The notes: generated from the sequence alone by a model not told the origin. A stretch of 38,198 bases of DNA from a virus (IMGVR_UViG_3300020043_004799:1-38198); one strand, 5' to 3'. Shown: positions 1,759-18,630, numbered from the stretch's first letter. Numbers and translations: made by a program.

Positions 1759-1833
1759 TGGTGCCGCCACGAGGACTTGAACCCCGAACATTCCGCCTAC
1801 AATGCGGCTACTCTGCCATTGAGCTATAGCGGC
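1759..1833 (-). tRNA. tRNA-Thr(UGU)
   Basis: GCCGCTA/TGGCGGC acceptor, A73, encoded CCA, D-arm GCTC/GAGT, T-loop TTCAAGT, anticodon loop ATTGTAG. Confidence 0.88.
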
Positions 1834-1834
1834 T

Positions 1835-1910
1835 TGGTGAGTTCGGCAGGACTTGAACCCGCAACCTAGCGTGTAGAAGACGCCTGATCTATCCATTGAT
1901 CTACGAACCC
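1835..1910 (-). tRNA. tRNA-Arg(UCU)
   Basis: GGGTTCG/CGAACTC acceptor, CCA, D-arm GATC/GATC with A20, anticodon loop CTTCTAC, T-loop TTCAAGT. Confidence 0.92.
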
Positions 1911-2218: not shown

Positions 2219-2256
2219 TCAGTCATGCTGCACCGCCTTGGCCGCTGCGAGGGCGG
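2219..2256 (-). repeat. Box D, left copy (38 bp; inverted copy 10761-10798)
   Basis: 38/38 identical by manual alignment. Confidence 0.95.
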
Positions 2257-2746
2257 CGTCATGGCTTTCGATGAACGAACACGCTGGGCATTGAACTAGA
2301 TCGCGGAATGCGTCGCCCGTGAGCGGCCCAGTTGCGTAGCAATCATGCGGCGCGCAATGCTCCCCTATTGCCCGTCGCCCTTCTTCAAGCGCCTCCACCA
2401 GCCGCGCAATCACCTCGTCGCGGGGGTCGGGCTGCGGCTCGATGGCGGCGAGGATGCGGGTGTAACCCGCGCTTTCGGTTGGGTCATATTCTGTCCACGC
2501 ATCAGCATGAAAACTGCTGGCAGCACCTGCGCTAACACGTCCAGATATGAATGCATGTTTCAGGGCATGGGATAAGTCCAGCGGCTTGACCCTCACCTTC
2601 GCGGGGACGGCGGCAAGGTCGGCGCGGACGATGCGAAAACCATTGCTACACAACTTATCGACGGCGGAATGAGCTGCGCTATATGTCAGATCACCATGCT
2701 TGTAGAGAAACTGCACGGCGTCATTGCGGTTGTCCGGTGCGGTCAT
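2219..2746 (-). CDS. Mosaic early protein L (conserved boxes + variable domains)
   Basis: Shares MTAP, ADLAAVPxxVRVKPL, PDPRDEVIARLVEA and ALAAAKAVQHD with 9791..10798. Confidence 0.85.
   Translation of the reverse strand: MTAPDNRNDAVQFLYKHGDLTYSAAHSAVDKLCSNGFRIVRADLAAVPAKVRVKPLDLSHALKHAFISGRVSAGAASSFHADAWTEYDPTESAGYTRILAAIEPQPDPRDEVIARLVEALEEGRRAIGEHCAPHDCYATGPLTGDAFRDLVQCPACSFIESHDAALAAAKAVQHD
2390..2433 (-). repeat. Box C, left copy (44 bp; inverted copy 10566-10609)
   Basis: 44/44 identical. Confidence 0.95.
2578..2624 (-). repeat. Box B, left copy (47 bp; inverted copy 10081-10127)
   Basis: 44/47 identical. Confidence 0.95.
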
Positions 2747-2748
2747 TT
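2733..2748 (-). repeat. Box A, left copy (16 bp; inverted copy 9789-9804)
   Basis: AAATGACCGCACCGGA spans the start codon in both genes. Confidence 0.85.
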
Positions 2749-2985
2749 CTTTTCTCCGATCAGGTCGTCCATCACGCCACCTTGAATCAGTCGGTCATCC
2801 ACGGTATCGAATACCAGCCATCCGTCGCGGTAAACTGGCCTGCGCGAATGCATAGGTTGCCACCAGTTTTTCCCGTGGTATCCGCGCAGATGCGCTACGG
2901 TGTCGCCGTCCTTCGCCGTGATTTTCCCAGTAAGATCAGAAAACACCTGATCCGGTGAAACCTTGATGCTTGTCTCGATCATCAT
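2743..2985 (-). CDS. Hypothetical protein
   Basis: Coupled overlaps at both ends; start moved to MMIETS. Confidence 0.6.
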   Translation of the reverse strand: MMIETSIKVSPDQVFSDLTGKITAKDGDTVAHLRGYHGKNWWQPMHSRRPVYRDGWLVFDTVDDRLIQGGVMDDLIGEKK

Positions 2986-3461
2986 ACACCGCCTTTCTTG
3001 CTGGCGGCGAGGATGGCAATTGCACACTCTTCTCCGGTCATTGGCGTGGTATTGCGCCAACCACTGATCAATTCAGCGATCCGTTCAACTGTGCGTGCTT
3101 CCGCCTCCGCGATCAGCCGATCAAGCGCGGCGGTCTGGTCGGGCGTGGCGAGGGCGCGCCGCAGGTCTTTTTGATCGACCTTAAACGTGTGGATTTTTTT
3201 CCCTCCGCCCCAAGGCTTAGGTCCAGAGACTCGATAATCTTGCATATAGAGGCTCGGACCTTCGACGCCCTTCACTACGTCCACGATTATATCACCCACC
3301 TCATATGCCGCAGCCGTGGCGGCATTGGCGCGGGTGAGGGCGGCCTCAAGCTGCTCGATGCGGTCGGCGGCCAATTCGGCTGCTTCTGTAAGCTGAACTC
3401 CGTAACGGAGTTGGTCCACCAGATCATCCGTGCCTACGGGGTGGGTTTCTTGGGCGGTCAT
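2982..3461 (-). CDS. Mosaic early protein (ead/Ea22-like scaffold: DDLV..AADRIEQLEA..TPDQ..AILAA)
   Basis: Scaffold motifs shared with 6600..7007; coupled start at 3461. Confidence 0.7.
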   Translation of the reverse strand: MTAQETHPVGTDDLVDQLRYGVQLTEAAELAADRIEQLEAALTRANAATAAAYEVGDIIVDVVKGVEGPSLYMQDYRVSGPKPWGGGKKIHTFKVDQKDLRRALATPDQTAALDRLIAEAEARTVERIAELISGWRNTTPMTGEECAIAILAASKKGGV

Positions 3462-3622
3462 CACACACCCCCCACAATGAACTGATTGAACGCATAGATG
3501 ATCACGCCAGCCGCAGCGCAGACGGCCACGACGATGCCGAACACCTGCCACAGCAGCCCGTCATGCGGCTCTGGCACAAGGTCAAAGCGGTTGTCGCGGG
3601 ATGGTAGGTCTTGGCGGGTCAT
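3461..3622 (-). CDS. 53-aa single-TM membrane protein
   Basis: Hand translation MTRQDL...LLWQVFGIVVAVCAAAGVIIYAF..GGV; coupled at both ends. Confidence 0.65.
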   Translation of the reverse strand: MTRQDLPSRDNRFDLVPEPHDGLLWQVFGIVVAVCAAAGVIIYAFNQFIVGGV

Positions 3623-3804
3623 TCTTGCGTCTCCTGTGCAATGGGGGTGAGGGTGTAGCCTGCTGCGAGGGCGGCTTGGCGCAGATCATCAAGCGCCATG
3701 TTGGACAGAAACTCGCGGTTTTCTTTGGACCAATAGGCCGCGCAGGCATGTTGCGATGCTATGGCCGCGTAACTACGCAATCCGCCAAGCTGGTAATCAT
3801 TCAT
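3619..3804 (-). CDS. Hypothetical protein
   Basis: GGAAGG RBS, operon continuity. Confidence 0.6.
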   Translation of the reverse strand: MNDYQLGGLRSYAAIASQHACAAYWSKENREFLSNMALDDLRQAALAAGYTLTPIAQETQE

Positions 3805-3994
3805 CGCGGTCATCCTTCCACTGCTCATATTTGTAATCGCCGTATTCATCAGCGGCGTCTTGCTCGGCCTGCTGCCAGCCTTCGTTGGTCCAGTATGCCT
3901 GCGCGGCGGCAATGTCGGCTTCGGGGTCTTCGCTATCCACGTTTCCGTCATCGTCGGCGGTGTAGTCAATATCGTGATAGGTGAAATAGAACAT
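3797..3994 (-). CDS. 65-aa highly acidic protein, DNA-mimic candidate
   Basis: 21 D/E versus 3 K/R; strong AAGGAG RBS. Confidence 0.7.
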   Translation of the reverse strand: MFYFTYHDIDYTADDDGNVDSEDPEADIAAAQAYWTNEGWQQAEQDAADEYGDYKYEQWKDDRDE

Positions 3995-4054
3995 GGGTGG
4001 TCTCCTTGCTTGCTGGCACATAGTGACGCGCCCCGTAAGGCGCGCTGCAATGGG

Positions 4055-4360
4055 TCAGGCGGACGCTTTTTCCAGTTTGTCGATATTGACGCTCAGCATA
4101 AGCGACTGAGCGTAACCCATGCGCGCAATCTGTTCGGCGGTGTCGCGGGCCGCAATCTTAGCCAGCGTACGGAGCCATGCAGCATCTGGACGCCCTTGGC
4201 TATAGCGCTTGCGGTCAACAGGCATTGCCGCGCGGATACAGTCAGCGCCGTAAACCCCGAGGCCAGAAAGCTGAATTCCAACCTTGAGCGAGCGCCCGCA
4301 GCAATCGCAGTTGGTCTGGAAGTCAGCTCCGATGATTTTTGTTTGGAAGGTCATGTTCAT
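4055..4360 (-). CDS. Hypothetical Cys-motif protein, first gene of leftward operon
   Basis: CDCCGR..YGADC motif; AAGGAG RBS. Confidence 0.7.
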   Translation of the reverse strand: MNMTFQTKIIGADFQTNCDCCGRSLKVGIQLSGLGVYGADCIRAAMPVDRKRYSQGRPDAAWLRTLAKIAARDTAEQIARMGYAQSLMLSVNIDKLEKASA

Positions 4361-4379
4361 TCTCCTTGCTTGCCAGATC

Positions 4380-4449
4380 ACCCTACACCGATTTTGCGCG
4401 CCTGCAACATAAAAATAACGATTGACCGCACTTTGTTTCGTGATATGGT
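4380..4449. promoter_or_regulatory. Divergent promoter region 1
   Basis: Plus TTGACC-N16-TATGGT (4422-4449); minus TTGCAG-N16-TAGGGT (4407-4380); AT-rich centre. Confidence 0.55.
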
Positions 4450-4455
4450 CGGCTC

Positions 4456-4659
4456 ATGGAAAACAAAACCGCACCTGAACTTCTGAACGACTGGCTCAAG
4501 CGCGAAGGCCGCAAGGGTCTTTGGCTGGCGTCGGTTCTCGGCGTAAACAAGGGCGCAATGACGTGCTGGCGTCGCGGTCACAATCCGCCGCTGCCGCCAT
4601 ACCGCCGTGAAATCGAACGCATCACCAATGGCGCTGTGCCTGCGAGTGCGTGGAAGTAA
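4456..4659 (+). CDS. Cro-like HTH regulator, probably leaderless mRNA
   Basis: LASVLGVNKGAMTCWRRG..P..IERITNGAVPASAW pattern; ATG 7 nt after the -10, no SD. Confidence 0.8.
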   Translation: MENKTAPELLNDWLKREGRKGLWLASVLGVNKGAMTCWRRGHNPPLPPYRREIERITNGAVPASAWK

Positions 4660-4693
4660 CCCGCCGCGTTTCACCTCTCGCGCGGCGCAACCT

Positions 4694-4731
4694 GCCGCCT
4701 GACATACGCCCCCCGGTCAGGCGGCTTTTTT
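4694..4731 (+). terminator. Rho-independent terminator
   Basis: GCCGCCTGAC/GTCAGGCGGC stem + T6. Confidence 0.8.
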
Positions 4732-4745
4732 ATTCTGGAGATGTG

Positions 4746-5342
4746 ATGCGCGTCCTTGTCGCCTGCGAATATTCTGGCCGCGTCCGTGAGGCGTTCCGCG
4801 CCCGTGGGGCTGATGCCTGGTCATGTGATCTGATCGAAAGCGAGGATAACAGCCCGCACCACATCATCGGTGACGCATTGGCCGTAGCGCGCGATGGATG
4901 GGATTTGATGATCGGCCACCCGCCCTGCACATACCTATCCAATAGCGGGGTTTGCCACCTCCACACCGATCCTGCCAGGTGGGGAAAGATGGCAGATGGT
5001 GCCGCGTTTTTTCGCGAGTTGTGGGATTTGCCTATTCCGCGTGTCTGCCTTGAAAATCCCGTAATGCACAAACATGCGCGTGAATTGATCGGCGGTCTGC
5101 GCCCGTTCCAGATTGTCCAACCGTGGATGTTTGGCCACTTGGAAACCAAGGCAACAGGGCTTTACCTGCGAGGCCTTATGCCACTGCGACCCGTCACTAA
5201 TCTCAAGGCTGAAACCATGGCATTGCCTGCCAATGTTCGCCAGCGCCTGTTTTACCTTCCCCCAGGTCCTGACCGCTGGAAAGAGCGCTCTCGCACATAT
5301 CAAGGCATTGCTGACGCTATGGCAGCGCAGTGGTGCAACTAA
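4746..5342 (+). CDS. Compact phage DNA cytosine-C5 methyltransferase-like protein
   Basis: HPPC catalytic and ENPV motifs, C-terminal GIADAMAAQW; atypical motif I VLVACEYSG; GGAG RBS. Confidence 0.75.
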   Translation: MRVLVACEYSGRVREAFRARGADAWSCDLIESEDNSPHHIIGDALAVARDGWDLMIGHPPCTYLSNSGVCHLHTDPARWGKMADGAAFFRELWDLPIPRVCLENPVMHKHARELIGGLRPFQIVQPWMFGHLETKATGLYLRGLMPLRPVTNLKAETMALPANVRQRLFYLPPGPDRWKERSRTYQGIADAMAAQWCN

Positions 5343-5463
5343 TTCAGCCCATCGGCTCAATCCGCCCCGCGTCGGTCACGCGCAACATGAAAGGTCAAGC
5401 CTAGGGCGATTTTGGTTGCCCCAGACAGACAGCCCCCGCCCGCTAACAAATGCGCTACATCTG

Positions 5464-5838
5464 CTATAGGCGGGGGCAAATCATCGCTGCAACGCGGGCC
5501 AGTAATTCGTCATCTGATCCGTGCAGATCGTTAAACGCGCGGCGGCTGCGGTGATACGCTCCAGCCCCATATTCGCGGCGATGGTGCTGCGGGCATAGCG
5601 GGATCACTCGCATGTCGGATCTGGGGTAGGGCAGGTGGTGCACCTCTACTATCCACGCACCGCAAACCAAGCACGGCAATTCTGCGACCCGCGCCATGTG
5701 CGCTTTGCCTTCTTCGCGCTCCGGCGATGCAAGATAGGCTTTGCGCTTGGCTGATTGCTTTGGCAGGCGCTTGCGCGGCTTCTTCGGTGGCTTGGGTTGC
5801 TTTTGTCCGAGTGGGCCGCGTCCAGCTAGATCAGGCAT
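5464..5838 (-). CDS. DUF968/Ref-like HNH zinc protein
   Basis: Basic N-terminus, CLVCG..EVHH..VIPLCPQHH. Confidence 0.7.
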   Translation of the reverse strand: MPDLAGRGPLGQKQPKPPKKPRKRLPKQSAKRKAYLASPEREEGKAHMARVAELPCLVCGAWIVEVHHLPYPRSDMRVIPLCPQHHRREYGAGAYHRSRRAFNDLHGSDDELLARVAAMICPRL

Positions 5839-6244
5839 CGACAAACGCCAGAACGTCAAAGCCGCAAGCCTCCGACAGTGCAGCCATAGCCTTGTCGAAA
5901 TACGCGCGAAACTCCGGCTGCGTCATTGCCCCGAAGGCAGTTGAGTGCGGCATCATCCCTGTGACGTTGCCGCGAAGGTCATAGATCGGCTCCACAAGGC
6001 CCATCCGCACCTTTAGCGCTGTGTGTAGCGCCTCACGCGATTGCCATCGTCCTGTGGCCTCTACGGCGCGTGTGAGGGCCTGCCAGTATAGGCGGTGGTG
6101 CGGAAGGCTACGCTTGCCGCGCGGCACTAGGTCAAACTCCGTGCCGTTTGGATATGCTGCAAGTTCCTCGGCGTCAAACGCGGTGACTGGCGAGAGTTTA
6201 CCCCCCGCCAGCTTAACCATTGGTGTAGGCGGTTTGTCTTTCAA
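5831..6244 (-). CDS. DUF1367/NinB-like recombination-associated protein
   Basis: RSLPHHRLYW and STAFGAMTQPEFRAY motifs. Confidence 0.6.
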   Translation of the reverse strand: MKDKPPTPMVKLAGGKLSPVTAFDAEELAAYPNGTEFDLVPRGKRSLPHHRLYWQALTRAVEATGRWQSREALHTALKVRMGLVEPIYDLRGNVTGMMPHSTAFGAMTQPEFRAYFDKAMAALSEACGFDVLAFVDA

Positions 6245-6603
6245 CTTGTGCCTTTCCCAATATCTAGCAGCACAGCTCGTGATCGGTTGATGCTTGCGGC
6301 GTAGTCTCTAAGCATTTGGTCAAACATCTTGTCTGATGGTGCAGCTTTCTTTCCGCCTTGCTCAAGCAAACTTAGTGCAGCCACAAGATGTGATGTCGTA
6401 TCAATTAGCGCCTCCACCGCCTTCGCCAGTTGCGCATTGGTGGCGTCGTGCAGGTCGGCGCGGGTGTTCCATGCGGCTGCGGCTTCATCACCAGTGGGAC
6501 GCCATCCTGTTTCAGCGCCGCAGCCGTAGCAGCGAACCCACGCGGTATCGTCATGTGGCGGCATCTTTTCACCGCAAAACGGGCATGGTTTCAGCGCGGT
6601 CAT
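6241..6603 (-). CDS. Lar-family restriction-alleviation domain protein with mosaic C-terminus
   Basis: LKPCPFCG..VRCYGCGA..AAAAWNTR. Confidence 0.8.
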   Translation of the reverse strand: MTALKPCPFCGEKMPPHDDTAWVRCYGCGAETGWRPTGDEAAAAWNTRADLHDATNAQLAKAVEALIDTTSHLVAALSLLEQGGKKAAPSDKMFDQMLRDYAASINRSRAVLLDIGKGTS

Positions 6604-7007
6604 GCTTTGGCTCCTTTGATGGCGGCGAGGATGGCATGCGCCAAATTATCTGCATGAGTTTTCCACTCCGCGCGGGGATTTGGGGTAACCCCTCCAAGAG
6701 GGCCGAGAGTTTGACATATCTTTGCCGCCTCCCGCATCCCCTGCGCCCGTGCTTCTGCCCGCACAGCGTCCATCGCGGCGTTTTGATCGGGGGTGGGCAG
6801 GGATGAAGTATGTAATGTAATCACACGATTGGACCACACTGCAAGCTGTCCCTGCGCCCACTCTGCTTTTTCTTTCCATGCGGCGCGTTCTTCTCCGCAG
6901 GCGTGCGCTTCTGCCACAGCCGCAGCGGTTTCTGCGCGGGATTGGGTCAGGGCGAGTTCGAGGGCTTTGATGCGGTGCTTACGCCCCCCAAGTAGGTCGT
7001 CTGTCAT
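6600..7007 (-). CDS. Mosaic early protein (paralogous scaffold to 2982..3461)
   Basis: TDDL, RIKALELALT, TPDQ, AILAA motifs. Confidence 0.7.
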   Translation of the reverse strand: MTDDLLGGRKHRIKALELALTQSRAETAAAVAEAHACGEERAAWKEKAEWAQGQLAVWSNRVITLHTSSLPTPDQNAAMDAVRAEARAQGMREAAKICQTLGPLGGVTPNPRAEWKTHADNLAHAILAAIKGAKA

Positions 7008-7189
7008 CAATTCGCCCCCATGATTTTGAAATGCCGATCAAACACGCGCTGGGCTGTCAGTTTTGCCGCCTCATCACCGCCGATCACCTGCGCGGCGGTA
7101 TCGACCAGCAGGCATTCATCGGCCCACCCCTCCGCGACGAGGTTTCGCATGGTATTCAGCGCGCGGCTTTCGTTGTGATTGCGTGTCAT
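7007..7189 (-). CDS. Hypothetical protein
   Basis: Fills the operon between ssb and the next gene. Confidence 0.55.
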   Translation of the reverse strand: MTRNHNESRALNTMRNLVAEGWADECLLVDTAAQVIGGDEAAKLTAQRVFDRHFKIMGAN

Positions 7190-7190
7190 G

Positions 7191-7592
7191 TCAGAACGGG
7201 ATTTCATCGTCTAAATCGGTGCGCCCATATCCAGTCTCAGATCCACCCTGACCGCCGCGTGGTTCGTCGTCCTGCCGTTGGCCATCGGACTTGCCGCCGC
7301 CTTGGAATGACAGATCATTGACTGTGATGCCAAGATACGCTTTGCCATCGTGCGCGCGCGCCGTGGGCCTGCCGCTGAGTGTCAGCTTGCCGCCCTTGGT
7401 GATGTGATTTTGCAGCGACGTGGCGCGCTTGCCCCAGATCGAGCAATCATACCACGTTGCATCGCGCTTGTTGCCCTGCGCGTCTTTTCCGTTGTCCACG
7501 GCCAGCGAGAAATTCAGCACGGCCTCGCCGCCTTGCGTGTTACGCAGAACGGCATCCTTGCCGACTGTGCCTGCGATTGTCAGAATTTGCAT
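7191..7592 (-). CDS. ssb: Single-stranded DNA-binding protein
   Basis: OB-fold motifs, Gly-rich linker, DDEIPF tail. Confidence 0.95.
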   Translation of the reverse strand: MQILTIAGTVGKDAVLRNTQGGEAVLNFSLAVDNGKDAQGNKRDATWYDCSIWGKRATSLQNHITKGGKLTLSGRPTARAHDGKAYLGITVNDLSFQGGGKSDGQRQDDEPRGGQGGSETGYGRTDLDDEIPF

Positions 7593-8275
7593 CAGATTGC
7601 CCTTTTCTCTTTGTAATTGCGAACCGCATCTTCCGGCATCCGCTTTGCGTTTTTCGCCACATATGCCTCAATAAAGGCGGTCATGGCATCCCGATCATTT
7701 GCCGCGATCCAGTGCAGCGCTTTGCGATGGTCGATGATCTCATAGCAATCATACCAGCGCATACCCTTCACGGTGTCATTCTTCGCCGCCATAGCTGCCC
7801 GCTGCGCAGCCTCTGCCTGAGCCTGTGCGGCTGCGGCTTGGCGCTGCGCCTCGATGTTGCTGGCGTCCGCCATGCGCGCGGCTTCCTGCGCCTTTCGGGT
7901 GGCCTCCCACGCCTCGGCCTCGGCCTTCTTGCGCGCGGCCTCCTTTTCCGCTGCCAGCTTGCGCTTGAACGTGTCCACCGCCGCGACAAGCCCTTTCACG
8001 ATGCGGTCAAGGTCAGTGATAGTCGGCGCAAACTTGGCCTTCTCCGCCTTCCACTGGTCATAGATCGGTTTCGCGGCGCTTTCCTCAGCAGCCTCGACGG
8101 CTTTCTTTGCCGCTTTGATTTCCTTGGTCAGCGCATCAACCGCCTTCATCTGGCCTTCGGTTTCAACAGGCTTCCCGTCAAGCCAGCCTTCTGCCTCAGT
8201 GATGGTATCGCCAAACGGCTCTAGCGCCTCGTCAATCGGGTTCGGCGGGTTGTTGTGAAGTTTGGTCACTTGCAT
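7592..8275 (-). CDS. Coiled-coil recombination-module protein
   Basis: HNNPP N-terminus, long Ala/Glu/Lys helix, between erf and ssb. Confidence 0.7.
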   Translation of the reverse strand: MQVTKLHNNPPNPIDEALEPFGDTITEAEGWLDGKPVETEGQMKAVDALTKEIKAAKKAVEAAEESAAKPIYDQWKAEKAKFAPTITDLDRIVKGLVAAVDTFKRKLAAEKEAARKKAEAEAWEATRKAQEAARMADASNIEAQRQAAAAQAQAEAAQRAAMAAKNDTVKGMRWYDCYEIIDHRKALHWIAANDRDAMTAFIEAYVAKNAKRMPEDAVRNYKEKRAI

Positions 8276-8285
8276 GTCATTCCCC

Positions 8286-8939
8286 TCAATATGGAATTTT
8301 GTCTTGCCCAAGGTCGTCGCGCATTCCTTGCAGTTGGGTCTTTCGCTTGTCTTTCTCGGCAATCACGCGGGTATCGGCCTGAACGGGCTTTGCCAGCGTC
8401 CGCCATACGCCTGCCAGATCGTCGAGGCTGTCGGCACTGGACAGCATGACGCAAGCCGAACCAACGGAGACCTCATGCGTTCCATCGATAGCGTCCTGAT
8501 TTTTAGGACGGTCCGGCTTCGGTGCAGCCTTCGCAGCGGCGTTGCCATCGTCATCCTCCGGCGCGATGCCAGTGACACTTTCAAGCCCGATCCGCTTGGC
8601 ATATGTGGTAGCGGACTTCATGCCCTGCATGTCGTTCTTGCTGACAATAAGCGGAACGTCGCAATCAATCCGCGTTTCGCTTTCCCCATGCACAAGTGAT
8701 GTTCGCATGTCCAGTCCGCCGCCTTCGGTGCGGATAATCTGGTGAAAGTATGCCAGACCATTTTCGACAAGCGCGGGTCGAACCGCTGACACAACGTCAG
8801 ACAGATCTGCATAGGCGGTGCCTTTCGGTTTCCCCTCGCCCTTGAACGCTGGGTTGATTGCGCCCTTGATGACAGGCTCCATTGCCATTTGTGCGGCTGA
8901 CAGCGCGGTGAATACGTTCTTGTGCGCGGTCATGATCAC
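8286..8939 (-). CDS. erf: ERF-family single-strand annealing protein
   Basis: NPAFK..YADLSDV..QGMKSATTYAKRIGL..EDDDG. Confidence 0.9.
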   Translation of the reverse strand: MIMTAHKNVFTALSAAQMAMEPVIKGAINPAFKGEGKPKGTAYADLSDVVSAVRPALVENGLAYFHQIIRTEGGGLDMRTSLVHGESETRIDCDVPLIVSKNDMQGMKSATTYAKRIGLESVTGIAPEDDDGNAAAKAAPKPDRPKNQDAIDGTHEVSVGSACVMLSSADSLDDLAGVWRTLAKPVQADTRVIAEKDKRKTQLQGMRDDLGQDKIPY

Positions 8940-9178
8940 ACCATGCCCAGCGCGTTGCGATACATGTCCTCGATAGCCTCGAACTCGGCTAGAGCGTCGC
9001 GGGCGATCTTGCGGTCGCGGATCACTTTCTTCATCACCTTGGTTTCGTATCCGCGCCCCTTGGCTTCGGCGAACAACTCCTTTTCCTGATCGGTGATGTC
9101 TTTTTTCTCAGCGGCAAGCTGTTCTGCCCGCTCGATAAATTGGCGCAGTTCGGCCTCGGTTGCGTTAATGTCGGTCAT
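8936..9178 (-). CDS. gapR: GapR (DUF2312) nucleoid-associated protein homologue
   Basis: ELRQFIERAEQL..EKK..AEAKGRGYETKVMKKVI..MYRNALGM. Confidence 0.9.
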   Translation of the reverse strand: MTDINATEAELRQFIERAEQLAAEKKDITDQEKELFAEAKGRGYETKVMKKVIRDRKIARDALAEFEAIEDMYRNALGMV

Positions 9179-9200
9179 TGGTTTTGCTCCTTGCTTGGTC

Positions 9201-9233
9201 TTGACACCATACCAAACGCGCGGCATTATGCAA
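9201..9233. promoter_or_regulatory. Overlapping divergent promoters 2
   Basis: Plus TTGACA-N17-CATTAT (9201-9229); minus TTGCAT-N16-TATGGT (9233-9206). Confidence 0.6.
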
Positions 9234-9258
9234 GGGCAAATGGCAAGGAAAGTGCAAA

Positions 9259-9510
9259 ATGACAGTCGATGAAATCAAGGCGGCGATTGCCGGAATGTCG
9301 CCAACGGCGGTTGCCGATGCGTCAGGTGTGGCGGTGCGGGCGATCTACAACATCAACAACGGGCTTGTCACTCCATCGCGCAAGACGCTGGATAAGCTGG
9401 AGGTTTGGCTGAACGGGTCGAAGCTGCCGCAGACCCAAGCGGAGTTGGATGCGGTCACAACCCGCGCCTTCAAGGCTGGGGCCGCTTGGGCGTGTAAGGT
9501 GAGCTTGTGA
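9259..9510 (+). CDS. XRE/Cro-like HTH regulator
   Basis: VADASGVAVRAIYNINNG..PSRKTLDKL. Confidence 0.8.
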   Translation: MTVDEIKAAIAGMSPTAVADASGVAVRAIYNINNGLVTPSRKTLDKLEVWLNGSKLPQTQAELDAVTTRAFKAGAAWACKVSL

Positions 9511-9794
9511 TGTGGGGAAATGCTATCGTTGCGGCGTGGAAACGCCTTTGGCAATCCGACTCCCAGGTCTCTACACCAAGCTCGCCCCAGACAAGCGCGG
9601 CAGGTTGTGGTTCTGCACTTCACACGAGGCGGATGCAGTCGCGCGCCGAGACGCAGCAACAGGCGTTCCAACGGCTGCAAAGCCTGCGGGCGCAGATCGC
9701 GGTGACAAACAAATTCAACCCACGCCGCGCCGATCTGGAAAGCCAAGCGCGCCAAGCGGTCAGGGTGATCTTTTCTGAGGGAGTGAACAAATGA
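9507..9794 (+). CDS. Hypothetical protein (frame coupled to both neighbours)
   Basis: GTGA/TGATG overlap upstream and ATGA overlap downstream. Confidence 0.45.
   Translation: MMWGNAIVAAWKRLWQSDSQVSTPSSPQTSAAGCGSALHTRRMQSRAETQQQAFQRLQSLRAQIAVTNKFNPRRADLESQARQAVRVIFSEGVNK
9512..9778 (+). CDS. Zinc-finger protein with C-terminal clamp-binding-like motif, nested in 9507..9794
   Basis: CYRC..WFCTSH and terminal QGDLF. Confidence 0.6.
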   Translation: MGKCYRCGVETPLAIRLPGLYTKLAPDKRGRLWFCTSHEADAVARRDAATGVPTAAKPAGADRGDKQIQPTPRRSGKPSAPSGQGDLF

Positions 9795-10798
9795 CCGCAC
9801 CGGAACGCTACCGCAAGAAACCTGTCGTTATTGATGCGATCCAATGGACAGGCGACAACCTTCGCGCTGTGATCTGCTTTACGGATGGGCCGCCAGACAC
9901 TCGCACAAACCACGCGGGGATGATGTGGGGGAAGTATGAAGATTTGGTCCAGCGCGAGGGGCTTAAAATCTACACGCTTGAAGGCGCGATGAATGCCAAC
10001 ATTGGCGACTACATCATCAAAGGCGTTAAGGGCGAGTTCTACCCGTGCAAGCCCGACATTTTCGCCGCCACCTATGATCCCGCCGACCTTGCCGCCGTTC
10101 CCACGCAGGTGAGGGTCAAGCCGCTGGTATTTGACTGGCACAAGGACGAGGACAGTCCAAACCCATCATGCTGGCGAGCAGATGGTGATGGTTTTTTTGC
10201 CTATGTCCTTATCCCGTTTGAACCCAATTCCGATCCGCACCGTGGCTTTGGGCAATGGAACGCAAACCCTAACCATCGCGGTCAGACAGGGTTCAGTTCG
10301 CGCGAACATGCGATGGCCTATTGCGAAACGACTATCCGAGATCAGGCCCAAGAAGATTTGAGCCACGCGATGCGGGCGATAGCGACGTGGGGCGTCGAAC
10401 CGCAGCCAGACCGCCGCATAGCAGACTACGAACAAGCCTATCAGTATGCACTAACATTGGCTGACGCGCTGATAGCAAAGCATTACCCAGACAATAAAGA
10501 CTGGCGACCGCTTGGAGACCTTACGGGGTTACTGACGCAGATCGACAATATGGTTGCGGGCAAGAAGCCCGACCCCCGCGACGAGGTGATTGCGCGGCTG
10601 GTGGAGGCGGCAGAAAAAACACTGGTGGCGGGTGAATTGCGCGAGGCATACCACCGGCTGCCGAATGACAAAAATAGGATCGGTGATGCGAAATCTCCCA
10701 AAAGCAAGGCCCGCGACGCTTGGCTGAAATATTTTCGTCGCGCAACTTCTGCGACTGCCACCGCCCTCGCAGCGGCCAAGGCGGTGCAGCATGACTGA
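9791..10798 (+). CDS. Mosaic early protein R; first module is the widespread phage YRKKPVV..GEFYPCKPDIF domain
   Basis: Four boxes shared with 2219..2746. Confidence 0.85.
   Translation: MTAPERYRKKPVVIDAIQWTGDNLRAVICFTDGPPDTRTNHAGMMWGKYEDLVQREGLKIYTLEGAMNANIGDYIIKGVKGEFYPCKPDIFAATYDPADLAAVPTQVRVKPLVFDWHKDEDSPNPSCWRADGDGFFAYVLIPFEPNSDPHRGFGQWNANPNHRGQTGFSSREHAMAYCETTIRDQAQEDLSHAMRAIATWGVEPQPDRRIADYEQAYQYALTLADALIAKHYPDNKDWRPLGDLTGLLTQIDNMVAGKKPDPRDEVIARLVEAAEKTLVAGELREAYHRLPNDKNRIGDAKSPKSKARDAWLKYFRRATSATATALAAAKAVQHD
10081..10127 (+). repeat. Box B, right copy
   Basis: Inverted copy of 2578-2624. Confidence 0.95.
10566..10609 (+). repeat. Box C, right copy
   Basis: Inverted copy of 2390-2433. 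Confidence 0.95.
10761..10798 (+). repeat. Box D, right copy
   Basis: Inverted copy of 2219-2256. Confidence 0.95.
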
Positions 10799-11189
10799 GG
10801 CAAAAATTCACCGATCTATCATCGCATGGCTGCGCGCGGTCCTGCCGGATGCCATTATCCATCATAGCGCCAATGAAGGGGTGCGCGGAGGCAAGGCTGG
10901 AATGCTGGACGGGGCGCGCAAGAAAGTCATGGGTCAGGTAGCGGGCTTCCCTGACATTCAGGTGATAACGTGGCAGCATGTGCCTGCCATGTTCTTCGAG
11001 GTCAAAGCACCTACAGGCAGCGTGTCGAAAGAGCAGGCTGCGATAATCAAGCGGCTGTCCGAGTTCGGCTATCGGTGCGCCGTGGTGCGGTCTATTGACG
11101 ATGTGCGGGCGCGCCTGTTTGAATGGGGGGTTCCGACGAAAGAAGCGGGGAACCTTGTGCGCTTGCAGGTCAAAGGACCGATCACATGA
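10791..11189 (+). CDS. VRR-NUC domain nuclease
   Basis: TEAKIH..HSANEG..GFPD..FFEVK..G.VSKEQ. Confidence 0.9.
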   Translation: MTEAKIHRSIIAWLRAVLPDAIIHHSANEGVRGGKAGMLDGARKKVMGQVAGFPDIQVITWQHVPAMFFEVKAPTGSVSKEQAAIIKRLSEFGYRCAVVRSIDDVRARLFEWGVPTKEAGNLVRLQVKGPIT

Positions 11190-11548
11190 CACACATTATC
11201 ACTGACGAAACCCACGCGCTACGGCGGCGTGTAGATCGGCTAGAAGCGCGTGTTCTGGACCTGACCGCAGAACTGCGGCGATTGCTTCCTAAGCCTTCGC
11301 AGCGACTGCCAGACGCAGAGACGCACCTAACCGTCATGTCTATAGTTGACGATGTGGCGGAAACCCACGGGATAACGCAGGCGGAAATATTGGGCAGAAA
11401 CCGTCAGGCGCATATCGTAAGAGCGCGTCATGAGTGCTTTGGCATAGCCAAGGGCGCTGGCGTTTCCTACGCGGACATTGGCCGATCAATGGGCCGCGAC
11501 CACACGGCTATCATGCACGGGGTGAAAAAGTGGAACTCTGGGACTTGA
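11186..11548 (+). CDS. Protein with DnaA C-terminal (domain IV)-like HTH
   Basis: EILGRNRQAHIVRAR..SYADIGRSMGRDHTAIMHGVKK. Confidence 0.8.
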   Translation: MTHIITDETHALRRRVDRLEARVLDLTAELRRLLPKPSQRLPDAETHLTVMSIVDDVAETHGITQAEILGRNRQAHIVRARHECFGIAKGAGVSYADIGRSMGRDHTAIMHGVKKWNSGT

Positions 11549-11703
11549 TCGACGCCGTGGAGGAACGCGCGGCAATCATCGAGGAGGGCGAAAAATGCCG
11601 CCGTGAGACTGCCGAGAACCACGCGGCGCGGCTGCACGGGTTTGCGGACTGGTCGGCGTATCGCGCGCATGTCAGGGCGATGCAGTCCAAGGCTATGAAA
11701 TGA
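11530..11703 (+). CDS. Hypothetical protein (ERAAI.E motif)
   Basis: EERAAIIEEG..R..AE motif common in phage replication regions; GTG start inferred. Confidence 0.55.
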   Translation: MELWDLIDAVEERAAIIEEGEKCRRETAENHAARLHGFADWSAYRAHVRAMQSKAMK

Positions 11704-11708
11704 ACAAA

Positions 11709-11738
11709 GCCGCGCTTTTCGGGCGCGGCCTTGCTTTT
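11709..11738 (+). terminator. Probable terminator
   Basis: GCCGCGC/GCGCGGC stem then CTTGCTTTT. Confidence 0.5.
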
Positions 11739-11759
11739 GCCGTGGTGGCGGCGTATGGT
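11731..11759 (+). promoter_or_regulatory. Sigma70-like promoter for replication genes
   Basis: TTGCTT-N17-TATGGT. Confidence 0.45.
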
Positions 11760-11839
11760 TGCGGCATCACATCGCAGGTTGTTGTTATCATGGGTGGTGC
11801 CGTGATGCAAGACCCTGCCCCAAAGAGGGCGTTTTCCCA

Positions 11840-12550
11840 ATGAACGGATTGCCATATTACAAGGCGTATCCACGAGACTTTTTTGAGGGGACAGTGGCCA
11901 TGCCATTTGACCTCAAGAGCGCGTATAGGCTCATTCTTGACCTGATCTACATGCATGGCGGAGCGCTTCCTGACGAGCCGAGATTTATCGCTGGCAACCT
12001 CGGATGCAGCGTCAGGGCGTGGTCTGGATACCGCGCGAAACTGATCGGCATGGGGAAAATATCGGCTGATCTTGGGATTATCTCCAATTTACGCGCGAAT
12101 AAAGAGCTGGATAATCTTGGGATGTTTCAAGATAAACAGCGCGAAAACGCAAGTAAACCAAGGAAAAGCAATGGCTTAGCGAACGCCATGGCTGAGCCAA
12201 AACCTAGCCATACAGAACCAGAACCAGATACAGAAAGAGTAGAAGCTAAAGCTTCTAAGCAAAAACGCCGATGCAGACTGCCAGACGGATGGGTTCCAAG
12301 CCCGAGAAACATGCAGGACGCCGCCGAAAAAGGTTTCACAGAAAGGGATGCCGAAAATGAAGCCGACAAGTTCAGAGATTACCACATCGCCAAAGGCACC
12401 ATCTACGCAGATTGGGACGCAGGTTGGCGAACTTGGATTGGCAGGGCTAGACCTAACGCGGGTGGCAACGCCAGATCAGGCAGCGCACATCAAAACCTAT
12501 TCGACGGGTTTCAACGGGCAGCACTTCGAGACGAAAGCCGCGCGGGATGA
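11840..12550 (+). CDS. DUF1376 (YdaU-like) replication initiator with DnaT-like C-terminal domain
   Basis: LPYYKAYPRDF..AYRLILDLIY; LPDGWVP..KFRDYH..DWDAGWRTWI. Confidence 0.8.
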   Translation: MNGLPYYKAYPRDFFEGTVAMPFDLKSAYRLILDLIYMHGGALPDEPRFIAGNLGCSVRAWSGYRAKLIGMGKISADLGIISNLRANKELDNLGMFQDKQRENASKPRKSNGLANAMAEPKPSHTEPEPDTERVEAKASKQKRRCRLPDGWVPSPRNMQDAAEKGFTERDAENEADKFRDYHIAKGTIYADWDAGWRTWIGRARPNAGGNARSGSAHQNLFDGFQRAALRDESRAG

Positions 12551-12983
12551 TGGCGCAGCGCTAGCTGATTGGCTGGCACGTCCTGCGCCGCGTTCGTGGC
12601 TTCTGTCGCGCATTGCAGCCCTTCTCAGCCACTACTTCACCGCATCAACAGACGCGCGGGTTGTGGAGGCCATGGCCGACGATTGGGCCGCGACGTTATC
12701 CAACTATCCGGCATGGGCCGTTGCCGATGCTTGCCGCTGGTGGATCAGCGCAGAGAATGAACGGCATAGGTTCAAGCCGCTTCCGGGTGAAATCAGCACC
12801 AGATGCATGCATGAGACGGAAAGGCTTCGGCTGGCAAAGCTGTTGATTGCTCGGTTCGATGCTGCAAACGGCGCGGCATTGCCAGTATTCACCGCGCCGG
12901 AACAACCCCGTGAGCGCGTCACCGCAGAACGTGCCGCCGACATTCTGCGCGATGTTGGATTTTCGCCGAAGCGGATGGAATAA
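12348..12983 (+). CDS. Initiator partner (helicase-loader-like); true start uncertain, probably downstream
   Basis: DWAATLSNYPAWAVADACRWW..KPLPGEI; follows initiator. Confidence 0.55.
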   Translation: MPKMKPTSSEITTSPKAPSTQIGTQVGELGLAGLDLTRVATPDQAAHIKTYSTGFNGQHFETKAARDDGAALADWLARPAPRSWLLSRIAALLSHYFTASTDARVVEAMADDWAATLSNYPAWAVADACRWWISAENERHRFKPLPGEISTRCMHETERLRLAKLLIARFDAANGAALPVFTAPEQPRERVTAERAADILRDVGFSPKRME

Positions 12984-13040
12984 CTCTTGCAGGCGTAACG
13001 GCACTGTGCAATGATAAATCACCAAGCAAGGATAACACAC

Positions 13041-13598
13041 ATGGACCTGACATACAAATCAACCACCACGCTAGCCCGCATTCGCGCGAACAGACCCTGC
13101 CGCGAAGGGTGGGAGAAACTGCTGGCGCATCTTGGCAAAACCAAGGCCGACGACGAACCGCTGCCGCTGCTGACCGTGCTTGACAGCAACGGCCTTGATG
13201 ATGCGCTGTGGGTTCTGTCATTCGCAATGCCAGATGATCGGCTTACGCGTCATTTTCAGGCGTGGTGCGCGGATCAGGTGCTGCATTTATTCGAGGATGA
13301 ACGCCCAAATGATGCGCGTGTGCGTGATCAGATCGCAATTCTGCGGAATGATGATGCGACGGACAAAGAGCGGGCTGACGCACGGGCTGCTGCATGGGCT
13401 GCCTCAGGGGCTACCTCAGGGGCTGCTGCACGGACTGCCGCACGGGCTGCTGCACTGGATGCGGCACTGGATGCGGCACGGGTTTCCGCACTGGCTGCTG
13501 CATGGGCTGCCTCAGGGGCTGCTGCACGGACTGCCGCATTAGATGCCGCAGGGGATGCCCAAGAAAAGCAACTTCGCAAAATGATTGGCGGTGTGTGA
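13041..13598 (+). CDS. Phage protein with Ala-rich tetrapeptide repeats (Imm5-like)
   Basis: PCREGWEKLL..NGLDDALW then ARAA/AWAA repeats. Confidence 0.8.
   Translation: MDLTYKSTTTLARIRANRPCREGWEKLLAHLGKTKADDEPLPLLTVLDSNGLDDALWVLSFAMPDDRLTRHFQAWCADQVLHLFEDERPNDARVRDQIAILRNDDATDKERADARAAAWAASGATSGAAARTAARAAALDAALDAARVSALAAAWAASGAAARTAALDAAGDAQEKQLRKMIGGV
13380..13559 (+). repeat. 15 degenerate 12-bp tandem units
   Basis: GCACGGGCTGCT / GCATGGGCTGCC / TCAGGGGCTGCT / GCACTGGATGCG variants in register. Confidence 0.9.
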
Positions 13599-18081: not shown

Positions 18082-18127
18082 CAACTTTCCAGCGTCGGGA
18101 TACGGCGCAAAAGCAAGGAGACCACCC

Positions 18128-18349
18128 ATGAAATCCATCTTCGCCGCACTCGCATCGTTTGCACTGGCATCAACCGCACTCGCCGACGCGCCCGCAGGTG
18201 CCGCATCCGCAAACTGCGACATCACCCAGTTCACGCCGATCATGTCCGCAGATGGCACGACCATCCTCTACTGGAATAACCCCACCTGCAAGAACCCCGC
18301 CCCCCGCGCCGCGTGTGAGCATGACGGTTCCTGCGAGATGGATGAGTGA
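18128..18349 (+). CDS. Small secreted/periplasmic Cys-containing protein
   Basis: Sec signal MKSIFAALASFALASTALA; four Cys; AAGGAG RBS. Confidence 0.75.
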   Translation: MKSIFAALASFALASTALADAPAGAASANCDITQFTPIMSADGTTILYWNNPTCKNPAPRAACEHDGSCEMDE

Positions 18350-18630
18350 CCATGGATTTTGGTGATGCAATCCGCGCCATGAAGGCCAGAAAGAAAGTGG
18401 CCCGTTCGGGCTGGAATGGCAAGGGGATGTGGCTGAAGATGATCCGTGGCCGTGACGTCACGCTTCACAACAACGGCTTCGGGCCTATCAACGAACACGA
18501 CCACGATTGGACGAGCAGGGTTCCTCGCCTGCTTGACTGGATCGGCATGAAGACAGCCGACAATAGCTTCGTCCCGTGGCTGGCATCGCAGACCGACATG
18601 TTGGCCGAAGATTGGGCCATCGTCGAGTAA
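18346..18630 (+). CDS. tad2: DUF2829 / Thoeris anti-defence Tad2-family protein
   Basis: MDFGDAI..KKVARSGWNGKGMWL..PWLASQTDMLAEDW. Confidence 0.85.
   Translation: MTMDFGDAIRAMKARKKVARSGWNGKGMWLKMIRGRDVTLHNNGFGPINEHDHDWTSRVPRLLDWIGMKTADNSFVPWLASQTDMLAEDWAIVE

Follow-up and report, generated by a model that had tools for sequence, protein, structure and literature searches.

DNA-conserved in-frame linkers point to a module library shared among phages rather than a demonstrated shufflon

Introduction

The origin of new small phage genes is an open question. Among described systems, motif swapping in the gp38 adhesin of T-even phages appears to be the closest published analogue of the genes treated here, and in the sfx shufflon of R64 one repeated site is shared by all crossover points. 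Domain shuffling without linkers is documented (PMC10684548), and conserved boundary sequences have not been findable at most mosaic junctions (PMC3029335). Here we describe L and R, two outward-pointing mosaic genes that share a set of short boxes in the viral genome IMGVR_UViG_3300020043_004799 (the window, meaning the whole stretch of 38,198 nucleotides (nt) that was analyzed), and compare them with genes of other phages and with known systems. An original prediction, made from the DNA of this window, had read the pair as a candidate domain shufflon without an invertase. Judging from sequence comparison, the feature is most likely a community-wide library of in-frame modules shared through linkers, and not a demonstrated shufflon.

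Results

Four in-frame boxes are shared by the mosaic genes L and R

Gene L (2219..2746, minus strand) encodes 175 amino acids (aa) and carries boxes A-B-C-D with three slots between them, and gene R (9791..10798, plus strand; 335 aa) carries boxes A-B-C'-C-D with four. Exact matching recovered all four shared boxes of the original prediction. Box A, at the start codon, matches over 16/16 nt (L 2748-2733 (-), R 9789-9804 (+)), box B (ADLAAVPAxVRVKPL) over 44/47 nt (L 2624-2578 (-), R 10081-10127 (+)), box C (PDPRDEVIARLVEA) over 44/44 nt (L 2433-2390 (-), R 10566-10609 (+)), and box D (ALAAAKAVQHD followed by the stop codon) over 38/38 nt (L 2256-2219 (-), R 10761-10798 (+)). Their order and frame are identical in the two genes and the sequence between them is unrelated when L is compared with R, again as predicted. 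In L, box C' (RILAAIEPQ; 2434..2460, minus strand) stands directly before box C, and in R a remnant of it (EPQPD; 10395..10417, plus strand) opens the extra slot 2b. This partial box, too, had been predicted; it is a 22/23 nt match in L006, and it is confirmed because L011 has the box, the following module and box C together, at 95% over 217 nt.

At the gene ends, the R copy of box D overlaps the start of the VRR-NUC gene; the box contains AAGGCGG and then an overlapping ATG, likely a ribosome-binding junction. The L copy of box A continues to 2764 as a LIGEKK-stop/start junction common to other phages. In 30 trimer-shuffled genomes, exact inverted matches reached 14-20 nt at most, so that boxes C and D lie far beyond chance, as does B (47 nt, 94%); box A alone (16 nt) is within chance and is accepted because of where it lies and because other phages have it too. 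As a check on assembly chimeras, a 1,155-nt contig from the independent run X1 covers 9345-10499 with 37 differences and has boxes A and B and the extra box of R arranged as in the window. The assembly of R is thereby supported as far as slot 2b; no contig among the matches listed spans all of L.

Box DNA is conserved across distant phages

A search for the boxes in other phages had been proposed with the original prediction, and pattern scans located them in a further 14 distinct phage records once duplicates (L006 and L013, of L012 and L009) and six chance matches had been removed. The latter were 6/8 matches to the 20-nt box B pattern (L020, L021, L023-L026) and were dropped as having no box gene. 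Among cultured phages, blastn of R returned matches to the slot 1 domain only, and a single weak tblastn match of the G006 gene to Aminobacter phage Erebus (E 5e-3) was not used. DNA matches cover 21-31% of the window in three complete relatives, and 8 of the 11 compared carriers share 0-4% of the window's DNA (matches of at least 100 nt); the distant carriers include DNA-polymerase-encoding, primase-encoding and temperate phages.

The boxes are conserved as DNA, as had been claimed. Across 13 records, 541/595 synonymous codons of the boxes equal those of the window (91%, a count without the box by which each locus had been found), against the 35% that codon use predicts. In the same phage pairs, core genes have 47-84% of synonymous codons identical, a figure raised by one shadow frame in the core set. 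Box by box, 72/78 synonymous codons are kept in B, 83/86 in C and 136/141 in D; internal boxes are as frozen as terminal ones. G002-G004 were found with a box C pattern that was free at most, not all, third positions. GC content at third codon positions is 0.78-0.92 in the boxes (those used for the search included) of phages whose own value is 0.40-0.49, and this GC-richness at third positions persists in phages whose overall GC content is 45-48%.

The only host link found is a box-family gene (L050 5765-6582 (+)) in a prophage of a Rhodobacterales metagenome-assembled genome; the box C pattern had 0 matches in the GTDB genomes scanned, and an alignment scan confirmed 1/284 pattern matches. 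Other linker dialects, such as VTVKPLVW / DPRDAQIAALVEA / ALKGGDA (L037 12471-13745 (-); P0001-P0013), carry the same modules, and modules therefore cross between linker alphabets. Two more gene families with boxes of their own occur in tandem runs upstream. The window has one of these, the second mosaic family X (2982..3461, minus strand), with DNA-conserved boxes E (3296-3350), F (3097-3161) and G (2980-3017).

Box C also contains what we take to be the E. coli Chi octamer (10597-10604 (+), 2395-2402 (-)), which has 7 copies in the genome. A Chi-like role was set aside, since the likely hosts use a recombination pathway other than that of E. coli Chi, and the occurrence is probably coincidental. 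The early regions of G002 and G003 hold repeated intergenic elements, partly inverted (L002 ~6700-13300; L004 1002-1186 / 7034-7139), which are possibly promoter-like cassettes.

Modules assort almost freely between the boxes

A profile built from 19 box proteins retrieved 225 clusters at 90% identity (120 listed) and 523 at 50%. Among 137 sequences, 88 parsed as B-C-D, of which 85 were kept and 3 dropped as misparsed or truncated; the other 49/137, many of them linker variants of the same family, did not parse by the strict pattern and were left out of the counts. Grouped at 70% identity, the modules of the 85 proteins form 46, 52, 13 and 48 groups in slots 1, 2a, 2b and 3, with median lengths of 46, 64, 44 and 29 aa, respectively. 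Combinations of modules were unique in 84/85 proteins, and only 1 of the 80 pairs sharing slot 1 also shares slot 2a (1.3 expected if independent). The idea, put forward with the original prediction, that modules are imported from other phages to give a combinatorial library thus gains strong support from these unique combinations and nearly unlinked slots.

Each of the seven L and R modules also occurs in other proteins, next to different partners. The slot 1 module of L (2625..2732, minus strand) is present in 4 other fetched proteins at 66-86%, its slot 2 module (2461..2577, minus strand) in P0130 (92%) and P0307 (68%), and its slot 3 Cys module (2257..2389, minus strand) in P0054 (95%), where it lies behind different slot 1 and 2 modules. 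For R, the slot 2a module (10128..10394, plus strand) recurs in P0001 and P0002 at 61-63%, the slot 3 module (10610..10760, plus strand) in P0007, P0008 and P0012 at 70-78%, and the slot 2b module (10418..10565, plus strand) in L011 at 100% aa and 95% nt identity, in a record that shares 3% of DNA with the window. At the R position, the close relatives L007 and G006 carry different modules in every slot between flanks that are mostly 87-97% identical in nt, and G001 has no box gene there. In contigs from independent runs of several studies, the boxes likewise follow one another with different sequence in between, in slots 1, 2 and 3 and in gene X. Identical synonymous codons make up 249/314 (79%) in shared modules; these modules keep 81-100% of residues and 61-100% of synonymous codons, which suggests that they are under selection as protein.

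Slots carry Lar-type modules and a candidate nucleotide sponge

The commonest named cargo is Lar-type domains, present in 42/149 family proteins, and 30/85 slot 1 modules start with a CPFC motif, in 16 variants. Pfam names the Lar family restriction-alleviation protein, and lambda Ral acts on type IA methylation (PMC12707154). Slot 1 of R (9805..10080, plus strand) holds a YRKKPVV (PGDYG-like) domain of a very large family (at least 7,993 clusters). Its model has a pLDDT of 91 and no match in PDB by profile or fold (best Z 4.0, root-mean-square deviation 6.0, 61 aligned), an absence that does not establish a new fold. YRKKPVV has Sequestin as its fusion partner in P0159 and shares clusters with Sequestin, Tad2, Acb2/Tad1, DUF551 and WDGH domains, and these fusion partners make it a candidate nucleotide sponge. 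Sequestin itself was found through its fusion to sponges (10.1101/2025.07.12.664507), and our literature search on PGDYG in phage found no paper.

In family databases, L had no match in Pfam, PHROGs or NCBIfam, slot 1 of R had no Pfam match to a known sponge and only PHROGs of unknown function and one weak pyrophosphohydrolase match over 35 residues, and a PDB sequence search of L and R gave 0 matches at E<=1. Since most modules are unnamed, the most that can be said of an anti-defense role of the library is that it is likely. The original suggestion of a library of host-interaction or anti-defense domains finds its backing only in the Lar-type modules and, through its fusion partners, YRKKPVV, and the cargo is likely to be material of this kind.

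L and R lie among the early genes

The window is a complete phage record of 38,077 base pairs (bp) with a 121-nt terminal overlap. Its structural genes include terminase, portal, capsid and head-closure genes, and its early genes encode ERF, SSB, a NinB-like protein, Lar and GapR; L and R are placed among the early, not the structural, genes. Between them lie the single-strand annealing protein ERF (8286..8939, minus strand), which is the candidate catalyst of exchange, and SSB (7191..7592, minus strand), both located where the original prediction had put them. A NinB/Orf-like recombination mediator (5831..6244, minus strand) is followed on the map by a Lar-domain gene (6241..6603, minus strand), whose Lar module is slot 1 of the R-position gene in the relative L007 (79% nt), and by a mosaic gene with degenerate F- and G-type linkers (6600..7010, minus strand).

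A GapR-like DNA-binding protein is encoded at 8936-9178 (-), and we take it to indicate an alphaproteobacterial host. Upstream of R, 9512-9778 (+) is probably the true gene rather than the overlapping 9507-9794 frame, because it is better conserved in relatives and its product ends in QGDLF, which resembles a sliding-clamp-binding motif. The genes tRNA-Thr(TGT) and tRNA-Arg(TCT) (1759-1910 (-)) lie downstream of L on the same strand. A Tad2-like protein (PF11195, E 3e-25) of the Thoeris anti-defense sponge family is encoded at 18346-18630 (+), adjoining the terminase genes. A 12-bp tandem array occupies 13349-13570 within the Ala-rich C-terminus of the 13011-13598 gene, and an exact 20-bp inverted pair (3992-4011 / 18111-18130) lies over a ribosome-binding region and start codon.

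Discussion

We consider it very probable that the linkers of L and R serve as in-frame crossover points at which co-infecting phages or prophages swap modules by homologous recombination, and this exchange most likely runs among Rhodobacterales-type phages. When a phage replicates beside a co-infecting phage or a prophage, annealing-type recombination between the two would pair two 40-50-bp boxes, and two crossovers, or one conversion tract, in neighboring boxes would replace one slot in frame. The driver would probably be a phage annealing protein such as the encoded ERF; Erf of phage D3 gives recombination 20-100-fold above RecA on 800-bp repeats, and the minimum for Red-beta is given as about 30 bp (PMC3945230). 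Where unlike or offset boxes pair, a slot could be left empty, box C could be doubled, or two gene families could be joined in a hybrid, and all these forms are seen among carriers. The terminal boxes may in addition supply a ribosome-binding site and a stop/start overlap by which whole genes would chain into operons; as these boxes end in AAGGCGG with an overlapping start, translation of the next gene would be coupled. The inverted pair itself would be explained by the gene arrangement of this phage group, in which each of two outward-facing early operons ends with one such gene.

Several points weigh against this account. Swapping is read from the comparison of sequences and the role of ERF is putative; the ERF-like protein of G004 is only 37% identical, the annealing protein having been checked in only part of the carriers, and the Erf data concern 800-bp repeats, not repeats of 40-50 bp. 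High silent-site identity could reflect frequent recent transfer or constant homogenization, not selection on DNA. Some linkage persists, as slot 3 is shared by 5/80 pairs that share slot 1 (1.3 expected) and by 4/51 pairs that share slot 2a (about 1 expected), and four-gamete cases numbered only two. Clustering of the database at 90% hides near-identical proteins and inflates the count of unique combinations, the pair test being less affected, and many modules are only 16-30 aa long. As for cargo, 107/149 family proteins had no Lar match and almost none had any other Pfam match, and the Lar share of the family is inflated because 4/19 query rows had a Lar match and a fifth began with CPFC.

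The headline claim of the original prediction was that the pair is a candidate invertase-free shufflon. In its full form, this reading would have ERF or RecA recombine the inverted L and R boxes often enough for the phage population to contain both orientations and up to eight hybrids, and this would be the purpose of the pair. Geometry and frame do allow this, since inversion at box B (about 7.5 kilobases (kb)) or box C (8.1 kb) would swap modules in frame with eight products. The complete phage G004 has box genes at both positions, inverted and with shared boxes and different cargo, and G006 has a diverged inverted pair; Erf can invert DNA between 800-bp inverted repeats inside lambda (PMC3945230), and invertible regions without a nearby recombinase have been reported (PMC9881135). 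However, 0/5 relatives are inverted: the complete genomes G001, G004 and G006 are collinear with the window across the left arm, middle and right arm, and L007 and L009/L013 agree with its orientation on the side they cover. Tyrosine (PF00589) and serine (PF00239) recombinases were found in 0/5 genomes in a scan with positive controls in 14/14 and 12/14 cases, a host enzyme lying outside that scan. The boxes offer no common core site either, as different boxes share no word >7 nt and contain no palindrome >5 nt. Nor are the L and R boxes nearer to each other than to those of unrelated phages, with each copy of box B carrying private differences; G002, G003 and L014 hold direct copies, and most carriers have single or tandem direct ones. 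The one opposite-strand joint among the 15 listed was a 33-nt box-to-box match explained by another phage's boxes, and a second contig search gave none among the 15 listed; this evidence on orientation comes from assembled contigs (69 and 28 rows beyond the listed ones), among which a rare minority form could escape. We therefore regard a shufflon as improbable. Occasional inversion by Erf is plausible by analogy, and nothing points to frequent or selected inversion. The associated claim that crossover would exchange the early promoters of the two arms rests on gene orientation only, because a promoter scan gave 2 sites, fewer than the 4.4 expected by chance.

The conservation of the boxes might alternatively come from the protein, with the boxes as a scaffold of helices flanking variable loops, as in Ea22, their DNA identity due to recent whole-gene transfer and GC-rich codons, and module change due to illegitimate recombination. 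A low-confidence model of L (pTM 0.41) does predict boxes C and D as helices around slot 3, so that the linkers may be scaffold as well; the DNA of shared modules is itself very similar (79% of synonymous codons), and more diverged linker dialects exist. Codon use, however, predicts 25-39% identity against the roughly 90% observed, whole-gene transfer would keep slots linked whereas they are nearly unlinked, and silent-site identity in the boxes exceeds that of both core genes and shared modules. Scaffold constraint alone is thus an unlikely explanation. Still harder to sustain is the idea that the boxes are frozen as overlapping regulatory DNA or RNA signals for antitermination, protein binding or translational coupling, with exchange riding along. 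Boxes D and G and the junction before A do carry Shine-Dalgarno-like words and stop/start overlaps, and the folds of box G (z -2.5) and box E (z -1.9) stand out somewhat among seven stretches, uncorrected; yet shuffled sequences fold as well as B, C and D do (z 0.24 to -1.26), and the internal boxes have no common motif.

Homologous exchange at the linkers would leave a library that could be read in a bolder way, which we put forward tentatively and with some doubt: phages of a host group may keep a communal, recombinase-free library whose linkers are held at silent sites by selection for recombinability, allowing V(D)J-like assembly of anti-defense and host-control proteins across families. 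If this is true, more than 100,000 combinations would be open to any member (46 x 52 x 48 seen in 85 proteins), and the slots would form a catalogue of undiscovered counter-defense domains, with YRKKPVV as a candidate new nucleotide sponge. In this family, boundary sequences are visible inside reading frames and common to unrelated phages, with near-free assortment between them, and the boundary-sequence idea is therefore testable by recoding one 40-bp box. The more than 100 small modules delimited with natural borders also form a practical library for anti-defense screening.

A literature search, with subscription papers and supplements outside its range, found no account of DNA-conserved in-frame linkers in phage accessory genes, and each of the known systems shares part of the picture. 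Like Acb4-Tad2-Sequestin fusions (10.1101/2025.07.12.664507, 10.64898/2026.06.04.730250) and polyvalent proteins (PMC5512222), the box family places several small conflict domains on one polypeptide, though none of the known sponge domains turned up in the family. Polyvalent proteins, often large, are packaged or injected, with their genes in a virion or conjugation context (PMC5512222); L and R lie among early genes. The sponge-fusion and polyvalent accounts, in the portions we draw on, give no linker-based mechanism (10.1101/2025.07.12.664507, 10.64898/2026.06.04.730250, PMC5512222). As in shufflons and programmed inversions (PMC9881135), inverted repeats lie in frame inside coding sequence and could swap protein parts; the present locus differs in that no site-specific recombinase of the two scanned families was found, the four repeats are unrelated and the 5 relatives show no second orientation.

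PeSL cassettes of T4-type phages resemble the boxes in that accessory DNA is shuffled without a recombinase at short repeated elements, but they are intergenic promoter-terminator units that move whole genes (PMC2839356), whereas the boxes are coding and would swap parts of genes; the boxes have no promoter-like site, and B, C and D fold like shuffles. The lambdoid Ea22 proteins (PMC7093339, PMC10834534) likewise come from an early accessory gene; they have mosaic blocks, their C-terminal domains are unrelated, and a terminal motif is conserved. Unlike Ea22, the L/R family has three to four slots and no long coiled coil (the model of L has short helices only), no Ead/Ea22 Pfam match was found in L, R or the 149 family proteins, and the passages on Ea22 in these papers mention no DNA-conserved linkers. 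The boundary-sequence model (PMC3029335) also has short conserved sequences acting as sites of homologous exchange between differing genomes, but it sets them at gene borders and they are absent at most mosaic junctions, whereas the L/R family has several of them within a single reading frame, demonstrably shared between phages.

The nearest parallel remains the T-even gp38 adhesin (PMC3157838, which cites Tetart 1998), in which in-frame motifs part variable segments, each slot has its own palette, and exchanges fall in or near the motifs. That protein works within related phages as a single essential adhesin of the virion, with segments that form undeletable loops of one fold (PMC3157838). 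The L/R genes, in contrast, are small and dispensable (none is present at the R position in G001), their linkers cross phage groups, and their slots may lack any module or contain whole unrelated domains; searches of Pfam, PHROGs, NCBIfam and PDB sequences gave no tail or adhesin family for L or R. With gp38 the L/R family nevertheless shares, on comparative grounds, motifs in fixed order and reassortment of the segments between them.

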